Assembly: GCF_003790525.1 (NCBI RefSeq)
Contig: NZ_CP033635.1
Direction: 5' to 3' (one strand)
From: Escherichia coli
GTDB taxonomy: Bacteria > Pseudomonadota > Gammaproteobacteria > Enterobacterales > Enterobacteriaceae
DNA length: 64,000 nt
The notes below the pieces were generated by a model that did no database searches, was not told where the DNA came from, and saw only the letters and a program-made list of their open reading frames with translations. Shown here piece by piece: positions 10,430-10,796 of the stretch; position 1 is the stretch's first letter; the number at the start of each line of letters is the position of its first letter. Made by a program: the position numbers and the translations under genes.

Positions 10430-10796
10430 AATTGCGCTGGCTGGCAAAGTGCAAAATTGCACGATGGCCTAACCCATTGATTATTTCGAAAACCTGCAAT
10501 GCAGGAAATCGGGGAAGTAAGCCTAAGCTATTGATTCTTTCGGAAACCTCAATTTGAGGAAGTCGGCGCGGTAACTCGCTGATATTCCCGATAACGCAAA
10601 ATTGCGTTGGCTGGTTGGCGAGTTGCAGATCTGCAACTCGACCATGAAACTACGGAAACTACCCGTAGTTTGGGTAGTAAGAGTAACACCCAGATTTTGG
10701 GGCTTACTCGTGATACCCAAATTTGGAGTATCGGTGGCAACCATAACGACTTTCGTTACGGTTGATGCTTTTACCCCATTGGGGGAAAGGTATTAC
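10430..10796. other. Hairpin-dense non-coding module (candidate structured RNA or ssDNA element)
   Basis: About 10 distinct stem-loops. Examples are 10449-10462, 10493-10505, 10547-10559, 10593-10608, 10619-10640 (a 22-nt perfect palindrome), 10647-10671, 10677-10707, 10712-10732, 10739-10763 and 10768-10789. Confidence 0.6.

Follow-up and report, generated by a model that had tools for sequence, protein, structure and literature searches.

The palindrome array described here lies at the non-coding end of a phage satellite island in a 64,000-nucleotide stretch of Escherichia coli DNA (contig NZ_CP033635.1 of assembly GCF_003790525.1; the whole stretch is called the window below). Judged by its sequence, the satellite array is composed of non-coding copies of a palindrome that is found inside the phage regulatory genes rha and roi, and its units carry consensus-matching candidate sites for the integration host factor (IHF). 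An earlier note on the same DNA had described two tandem 54-nt units whose differences keep a central stem paired and had read this as selection on a secondary structure, as opposed to a coding frame or a sequence to which a protein binds. The first half of that reading stands, as dyad symmetry is kept while the sequence changes, in these two units and across the family of related arrays, far beyond chance. The second half is not supported, since the evidence favours double-stranded DNA modules over RNA, although these modules are compatible with transcription of the array.

In a canonical unit of approximately 48-54 bp, the IHF site is followed by some 10 A/T-rich bases, then by a dyad whose arms measure 4-8 bp, and last by GG; the IHF site and the dyad stand about two helical turns apart at a fixed spacing. 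All units of all arrays have a single orientation, co-directional with the upstream operon and antisense to rha and roi. Perfect palindromes with arms of at least 6 bp number 17/kb in 10380-10850 compared with a window mean of 1.4/kb, making this the densest spot of the 64 kb, and the array is non-coding, with its reading frames interrupted by stops. The parts of the array are the following.

10386-10429, plus strand: left copy of a 44-nt direct repeat.
10427-10466, plus strand: cut-down unit AATTGCGCTGGCTGG, the 3' half of a module of the unit 3 type, with a dyad.
10467-10520, plus strand: unit 1, with the IHF consensus and the dyad CCTGCA-A-TGCAGG.
10470-10482, minus strand: exact match of unit 1 to the IHF consensus, AATCAATGGGTTA (WATCAANNNNTTR).
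10493-10505: dyad of unit 1, CCTGCAATGCAGG, with 6-bp arms and a 1-nt centre.
10521-10574, plus strand: unit 2, with the IHF consensus and the dyad CCTCAA-T-TTGAGG.
10524-10536, minus strand: exact match of unit 2 to the IHF consensus, AATCAATAGCTTA.
10547-10559: dyad of unit 2, CCTCAATTTGAGG.
10569-10615, plus strand: unit 3, of the canonical Rha type.
10616-10797: distal half of the array, with further palindromes that have no IHF anchor.
10798-10841, plus strand: right (ancestral) copy of the 44-nt direct repeat, at the distal end of the array.

The repeat finder returns units 1 and 2 as a 54-nt tandem pair with 76% identity (41/54), in agreement with the count of the earlier note, and the two double substitutions that it had reported are seen in the two dyads, where G:C is changed to C:G and C:G to A:T, together with the centre base. 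The diverged flanking copies that it had noticed correspond to unit 3 on one side and on the other to the cut-down unit, whose dyad GTGCAA-AA-TTGCAC at 10449-10462 has no IHF anchor. Unit 3 has the dyad AACGCAA-AA-TTGCGTT at 10593-10608, and its minus strand reads ..SQRNFALSGI.., which is the Rha motif (open reading frame (ORF) 10523-10744, minus strand). The 44-nt repeat brackets the array in this window only, as related islands possess the distal copy alone; the left copy is therefore local to this window and marks the duplication or rearrangement that cut the first unit. The palindromes of the distal half include a perfect one of 22 bp at 10619-10640, AAACTACGG..CCGTAGTTT at 10647-10671, one at 10738-10764, and others, and none of those in 10616-10797 was matched to a phage gene.

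One source of the homology of the array to phage genes is roi. Positions 10519-10566 (unit 2) are 45/48 identical to a stretch inside the roi gene of HK620, H-19B, many Shiga toxin (Stx) phages, and others, and the plus strand of the window at this unit is antisense to roi. The counterpart of unit 2 in the gene covers codons ~41-57, which encode IRLPQIEVSERINNLG, a stretch that comes directly after the helix-turn-helix of the Rha-like N-terminal domain of Roi. Unit 1 is a non-coding antisense copy of another roi allele, the Stx2a_WGPS6/HK97/HK022 type with the CCTGCAATGCAGG dyad, in which the codons at this place read PALQ (CCT GCA TTG CAG G, the CCTGCATTGCAGG palindrome); its phage match (H118) is 26/27 identical. 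Units 1 and 2 thus copy two existing phage alleles, so that the compensatory swaps of the earlier note represent an allele difference and not local drift, and the paired variants that had been taken to speak against a coding frame derive from two coding alleles of roi.

Every sampled palindrome type of roi has a close counterpart among the satellite units. For instance, the unit-allele identities are 43/45 for HK620, 38/39 for PhiR49_2, 44/47 for the L149 type, and 27/27 for WGPS6 (core); they are 37/44 for VT2-Sakai, 40/47 for Stx2_14744, 31/37 for Stx1_14744, and 29/39 for HK022/HK97. In the matched roi alleles other than Stx1_14744, the palindrome is directly followed by an IHF consensus, which stands at nt 153-156 of the gene. 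The consensus beside the palindrome in HK022 roi is the sole one of the whole gene, while Stx1_14744 roi has 12-bp dyad arms and an IHF site one mismatch off the consensus. The roi alleles of F451, vB_EcoS_P22, APSE-1, and SSU5 have no palindrome. Roi of HK022 reportedly has its binding site inside its own gene, in close linkage with an IHF site, and IHF is said to stabilise the binding of Roi.

The rha genes constitute the second source of homology. Read on the opposite strand, the array unit that occurs most often, CGCAAAATTGCG, gives CGC-AAT-TTT-GCG, and CGC AAT TTT GCG, a 5+2+5 palindrome, encodes the R-N-F-A motif in 52/52 distinct rha genes. These 52 genes carrying R-N-F-A were obtained from 80 diverse rha loci and have a gene GC content of 0.31-0.67; the phage rha genes are those of loci L321-L400 and L313-L320, and the window copy is at 10593-10608. 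Control motifs in the same genes (KRH, GFTG, DGF, and AFN) are encoded by mixed codons; the Arg codon of KRH is CGT in 34, CGC in 4, and AGA in 3, and in AFN the Ala codon is GCC in 41 and GCG in 0, with AAC in 40 and AAT in 8 for Asn. Amino-acid variants of the motif also retain the dyad, as RNFS is written CGA AAT TTT TCG and HNFV is written CAC AAT TTT GTG. By this codon evidence, the palindrome inside the rha and roi genes is selected at the nucleotide level across very different phages, and the pattern suggests a putative operator embedded in the codons of the R-N-F-A motif in Rha-family regulators. The literature searched has no mention of the 12-mer CGC AAT TTT GCG.

The same motif connects individual phages with the array. 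The sequence N-CGCAATTTTGCG-N is present at the motif in rha of Lambda_2B8, Stx2_716, 1720a-02, Lyz12581Vzw, 118970_sal3, and Klebsiella phage Chronis, and in the rha gene of P22 CGCATTTTTGCG is followed by the IHF consensus AATCAATAACTTA. An exact scan with the 18-mer CGATAACGCAAAATTGCG revealed 66 places, among which 59 adjoin a gene of the phrog_1561 family, the small gene that stands upstream of the array; in four AT-rich phage contigs from outside E. coli, the 18-mer is located inside canonical rha genes, on the opposite strand, and encodes RNFALS.

Two double changes alone are weak evidence of selection, and the whole family was therefore tested. Related arrays were taken from IMG/VR loci encoding phrog_1561 homologues (80 loci) and from exact-word scans, and 70 distinct units were aligned. 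The dyad centre measures 1 or 3 nt (odd) or 2 or 4 nt (even), so two registers were scored separately. In the odd-centre units (n=29, from the window and related islands), 82.8% of cells are paired compared with 60.7% after shuffling, and in the even-centre units (n=32), 89.7% compared with 81.2%, all 61 units scored having been chosen for possessing a palindrome. Covariation in the odd register is 0.501 against 0.126, a value reached by 0/500 shuffles, with slid controls at <=0.126 and double changes in 5/7 pairs; in the even register it is 0.296 against 0.135 (0/500). In an unselected test, 63% of array anchors had a perfect dyad (>=5 bp) at the fixed offset; the corresponding values were 5% for shuffled sequence and 19% where the anchor motif lies in coding DNA. 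The dyad thus covaries above both shuffled and slid controls in the kind of multi-unit alignment that the earlier note had proposed as a check.

The conserved part beside the dyad resembles a site for IHF, whose consensus is WATCARNNNNTTR. The earlier note had pointed to a shared TGAT without assigning it; YAANNNNYTGATW, which contains this TGAT, is the reverse complement of the IHF consensus. In the array of the window, exact matches to WATCAANNNNTTR are present in units 1 and 2, and unit 3 has the WATCAR form of the consensus, YAAN4YTGATW, at 10572-10584. The invariant columns of the 70-unit alignment (T4 A5 A6 ... T12 G13 A14) coincide exactly with the positions that YAANNNNTTGATW specifies, and the four N positions of the consensus vary among the aligned units. 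The association was also recovered by a palindrome-first scan that used no IHF criterion, in which 28/208 distinct contexts have the consensus compared with 0.06 expected; in those 28 contexts it stands at an offset of -31 to -26 from the dyad centre and always on the same strand.

Stem covariation alone cannot tell an RNA fold from a dimer-binding DNA dyad, as parallel changes in the two half-sites are also expected of a dimer-binding DNA operator whose specificity shifts. The array could belong to a structured non-coding RNA or a set of 3'-untranslated-region hairpins selected for their fold, such as mRNA-stabilising stem-loops or a multi-hairpin regulatory RNA, and in support of this the stems covary and the whole 471-nt stretch folds far better than its shuffles on both strands (z -9.3 and -8.0). 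However, such z-scores are expected on both strands of any palindrome-rich DNA, and the single units are unremarkable, with z values of -1.3, +0.3, and -1.7 for units 1-3 as RNA, no more stable than their shuffles. In the minimum-energy fold of the plus strand of unit 2, the left dyad arm pairs with upstream bases and there is no central hairpin. The complementarity reaches to 0-2 nt of the dyad centre, which leaves too little for a hairpin loop and makes the innermost pairs impossible in a hairpin; the centre is only 0-2 nt in 66/102 units. Alongside 355 Watson-Crick pairs, the plus strand has 14 G.T pairs and the minus strand 21, hence no strand preference and no G.U excess on either strand, and an Rfam scan of 1-14000 with E up to 1 gave no match. 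The paired variants, moreover, are inherited from phage coding alleles, and the best-conserved positions form a consensus for DNA binding that keeps a fixed phase relative to the dyad. The lack of a rha/roi gene in cis likewise favours DNA sites over RNA. A role of the units as folded RNA of this kind is thus very improbable.

The array may serve as a multi-specificity docking or titration platform for the Rha/Roi proteins of helper phages together with IHF, a reading for which the sequence relationships argue and to which we give slightly less than an even chance. It appears to string together dyads of several specificities, namely the Rha type CGCAA-NN-TTGCG and the Roi types HK620, HK022/HK97/WGPS6, VT2-Sakai/Stx2_14744, and Stx1_14744. 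No Rha/Roi-family protein is encoded in 102 phrog_1561 loci (975 kb) or in the 64-kb window, and in the absence of such a gene in cis, a cognate protein must act in trans, with the helper phage as its obvious source. When a helper expresses a protein of the Rha/Roi family, this protein would dock on the matching units together with the IHF of the host. The array would then titrate the regulator off its intragenic operator, or the satellite would sense which helper is present or active, and the several allele-specific dyads per array would reflect a broad or shifting range of helpers.

Several points weigh against this platform reading. The palindrome itself is no more than a candidate contact of Roi, and canonical enterobacterial rha genes possess the palindrome but no IHF consensus, so that the IHF half is common only to the subgroup of roi and P22 rha. 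The even-centre units (AACGCAA-AA-TTGCGTT and relatives) have no BLAST match in phages, and their link to rha therefore rests on a core of 12-18 nt and the motif that it encodes. Longer palindromes in the distal half of the array, of which one has a 7-nt loop, lack any counterpart in phages and may be elements of another kind. Titration of IHF itself is implausible given the abundance of this protein, and any benefit to the satellite, whether from a decoy or from a sensor, is a guess. The constant orientation of the units, antisense to rha and roi, also fits an antisense RNA.

An array of antisense RNAs is the main rival, which we consider unlikely though worth serious attention. The units would be transcribed with or downstream of the late operon and would silence the helper regulator by loop-loop pairing with the best-conserved stretch of its rha/roi mRNA. 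Besides being antisense to rha/roi, every unit runs in the direction of the upstream gene. In many islands no terminator separates the phrog_1561 gene from the array, and the stop codon of this gene is overlapped by the first unit. Several units have 85-96% identity to a roi allele over 40-48 nt, with the linker included, and there is no rha/roi gene in cis. Such an RNA leaves unexplained, however, why the IHF positions are invariant while the N positions vary, and the stretch common to the canonical-type units and real rha genes is only ~12-18 nt long. The array of this window is preceded by a terminator-like hairpin with T6 and has no promoter-like site inside it, and a constant orientation also follows from tandem duplication alone.

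The distribution of the arrays bears on whether they have any function. The array sequence is present in 1838/5426 complete E. coli genomes, always in the same place and at up to 8 places per genome, and the arrays are mosaic between islands, varying by whole units. The units might accordingly be mere recombination debris, that is, fragments of helper rha/roi genes that were captured, tandemly duplicated, and refreshed by gene conversion without any function; they are shuffled between islands, a rearrangement in this window cut one of them, and the near-identity to phage alleles suggests recent exchange. We regard this as improbable, because the array sequence is so frequent and always in one place, because the even-centre units have perfect dyads with no BLAST-detectable donor in phages or E. 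coli prophages, and because the dyad and the IHF positions are invariant even though the reading frame has been destroyed. In E. coli genomes, the even-centre units match arrays only, in 1340/5426 genomes, where they are annotated under 'hypothetical protein' or as nothing.

Other repeats were noted in related islands. In loci L008, L020-L022, L025, L036, L039, L040 (~2780-2850), and L075 (~3190-3230), 4-5 phased GTGAC repeats with a spacing of 10-11 bp are found downstream of phrog_1561, in the position that the array has in other islands, and they look like another protein-binding array. The array palindrome CATCACCATGATGGTGATG (L004 ~3160 and L077 ~3412) has half-sites resembling the lambdoid operator half-site ATCACC and may be another operator-like module.

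The array belongs to a phage satellite of the enterobacterial phage-inducible chromosomal island (PICI) type, which makes up the first 11 kb of the window and has the following features.

163-11002, plus strand: satellite island carrying the array.
188-1438: integrase gene of the island.
1813-2001: AlpA gene of the island.
4075-5481: AAA_25 primase/helicase gene of the island.
7608-9524: ClpP-protease::major-capsid fusion gene of the island.
9954-10253, plus strand: small gene of the phrog_1561 family, 99 aa, which always precedes the array.
10324-10348, plus strand: terminator-like hairpin ATGACGT-GGCCA-ACGTCAT followed by T6, between the phrog_1561 gene and the array.

Doublets of GGTGTAGTTAAT at 163-190 and 10979-11002 bound the island, and phoQ/phoP lie on its right side; its placement between roxA and phoQ comes from a comparison with the related island in E. 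coli SLK172. Further island genes encode SSB and a PerC-family protein. The ORF at 7608-9524 is a single one of 638 aa, in which a ClpP-like prohead protease domain is fused to a major capsid domain of the HK97 fold. By the ORF list and the family scan, there is no gene for a terminase small subunit in the island of the window, unlike in that of SLK172. The array lies within the 730 bp of non-coding DNA that extend from the phrog_1561 gene to the right attachment site (attR). The phrog_1561 protein has no match in Pfam, NCBIfam, or PDB and no phage record, and its AlphaFold model, with three predicted helices, is poor (pLDDT 59). There is no correspondence between its C-terminal alleles and the type of the first array unit, and scans of genome contigs with a flank 25-mer and with the phrog_1561 protein gave zero matches.

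The segment 10307-10365, which contains the hairpin, shows 78-89% identity to an intergenic element that directly follows the endolysin gene R in Stx phages, and this terminator-like module recurs mid-array in another island (L075). It was considered as a second antisense copy of a phage gene and rejected, as the Stx match is intergenic, terminator-like, and not antisense to a coding sequence. Far from the array, degenerate tandem repeats are found at 48616-48731 (period 9, 12.9 copies) and 49442-49573 (period 12, 11 copies), and both tracts probably lie inside a coding region.

The place of the array between the packaging-related end of the island and attR raises another alternative, an architectural site for DNA transactions of the satellite, in which IHF would bend the DNA and satellite or terminase proteins would bind the palindromes. 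The array would then be a cosB/pac packaging platform, an attP arm, or a replication enhancer. Lambda cosB, P1 pac, and attP arms typically contain IHF sites, and both this and the phased GTGAC repeats in the same position elsewhere would suit such a role. It is nevertheless an improbable one, since a separate cos-like region at 9785-9948, ~500 bp upstream, is more likely to serve in packaging, attachment sites differ from array to array, and accessory DNA can lie between the units and att (L019, L059, and L077). Several different dyads per array would also be needless for a single satellite protein, and the match to rha/roi would go unexplained.

The region 9785-9948 is ~90% identical to the right end of the genomes of mEp460-, phi458-, and Ayreon-like phages, and it is probably the cos/packaging region of the satellite, borrowed from this group of helpers. 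Lambda cosN has no match in the island at <=2 mismatches. A motif resembling cosN (ACGGGGCGG..TCGCGG) was set aside as a feature of the array, as none of its three occurrences is inside it. The 20-mer ACGGGGCGGGAGCRTCGCGG is present three times in the island, at 7045-7064 (+), 9583-9602 (+), and 9899-9918 (-), compared with 0.01 expected; it resembles the flanks of lambda cosN, yet it is repeated and inverted, and it may be a late-regulator or terminase-related site. Two more exact IHF consensus sites are found at 9842-9854 (+), in the cos-like region upstream of phrog_1561, and at 11044-11056 (+), just outside attR and upstream of the end of phoQ.

Among known systems, the closest is the intragenic site of HK022 roi, which belongs to the same sequence family as the array and has a palindrome and an IHF consensus at the same spacing. 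In the phage, one copy is present, reportedly inside the gene of the protein that binds it, whereas the satellite has several specificities in tandem, non-coding and in reverse orientation, with no rha/roi gene in cis; as the array stands outside an intact Rha-family frame, its units are copies of the element and not its native setting. The RIP/RIB elements (BIME-1) of the E. coli chromosome, with an IHF site flanked by repetitive extragenic palindromic (REP) sequences, are likewise repeated extragenic modules of IHF site and palindrome, but the palindromes of the array are diverse and homologous to a phage coding segment, the element is confined to satellites beside phrog_1561, and the REP consensus GCCKGATGCGRCG has no match at <=2 mismatches within 10380-10850.

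Titrating clusters of sites include datA of E. coli for DnaA, the incA iterons of P1, and sopC of F, which has 12 tandem 43-bp units, each with a short inverted repeat. The array has in common with them tandem units of ~40-55 bp with a short protein-binding element, and the proposed action is the same, to sequester or dock a DNA-binding protein in trans. They repeat one specificity for a protein of their own, whereas the units of the array differ and their partners would come from helper phages. CRISPR loci are also tandem, related to mobile elements, and have variable parts that match phage genes; in the array, by contrast, the variable part is a palindrome, the constant part is an IHF consensus, and the matches are in one gene family at one position. 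There are no cas genes among the ORFs of the island, none of which is cas-sized, or in the subset scanned against PHROGs/Pfam. RNAs such as CopA, RNAI, and the P4 CI RNA have short stem-loops that are complementary to the mRNA they target in a competing replicon, in which they resemble the array, but an RNA role would leave its IHF positions and its dyad centres of 1-2 nt unexplained.

Three further identities were rejected. The repeats of type III toxin-antitoxin RNAs do not fit, as the units are <=76% identical and attR rather than a toxin ORF comes next. An integron attC site is suggested by GCCTAAC, which is similar to an inverse core site, but a GTTRRRY partner is missing and R''/R' pairing is absent. 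Mimicry of lambda nut (boxA/boxB) fails on two counts, as there is no boxA and the loops are not of the GNRA kind. The array is best filed with IHF-assisted operator sites and site-cluster titration, and in the literature searched there is no description of it, nor of a link of IHF to PICIs beyond cosB.

A broader idea, more doubtful than the platform reading and put forward tentatively, is that enterobacterial phage satellites carry a heritable and expandable catalogue, free of Cas proteins, of the Rha/Roi auto-operators of their helpers, in which variants would be recognised through the DNA-binding proteins of the helpers or antisense pairing to this segment, to sponge or sense these regulators in an arms race. 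If this is true, phage alleles would change the protein wing and the operator together, as both are written in the same nucleotides, and as a corollary, Rha-family regulators in general would be autoregulated via an operator in the R-N-F-A codons.

Proteins of the Rha, Roi, and antirepressor type are, to our knowledge, among the commonest phage regulators, with targets that are largely undefined. A candidate operator for the Rha family is provided by the 12-nt palindrome, which is fixed at synonymous sites in every rha gene sampled, and the array sequence, present in about a quarter to a third of complete E. coli genomes, appears to collect allele-specific copies of this putative operator beside IHF sites. 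The locus offers a testable handle on these targets and on the question of how Gram-negative satellites perceive or disarm their helpers. If binding is confirmed, the array would represent a new mode of satellite-helper interaction, by a cis-element acting as a decoy or sensor rather than by a protein, in which the recognition surface of a regulator and its DNA site are encoded by the same nucleotides.

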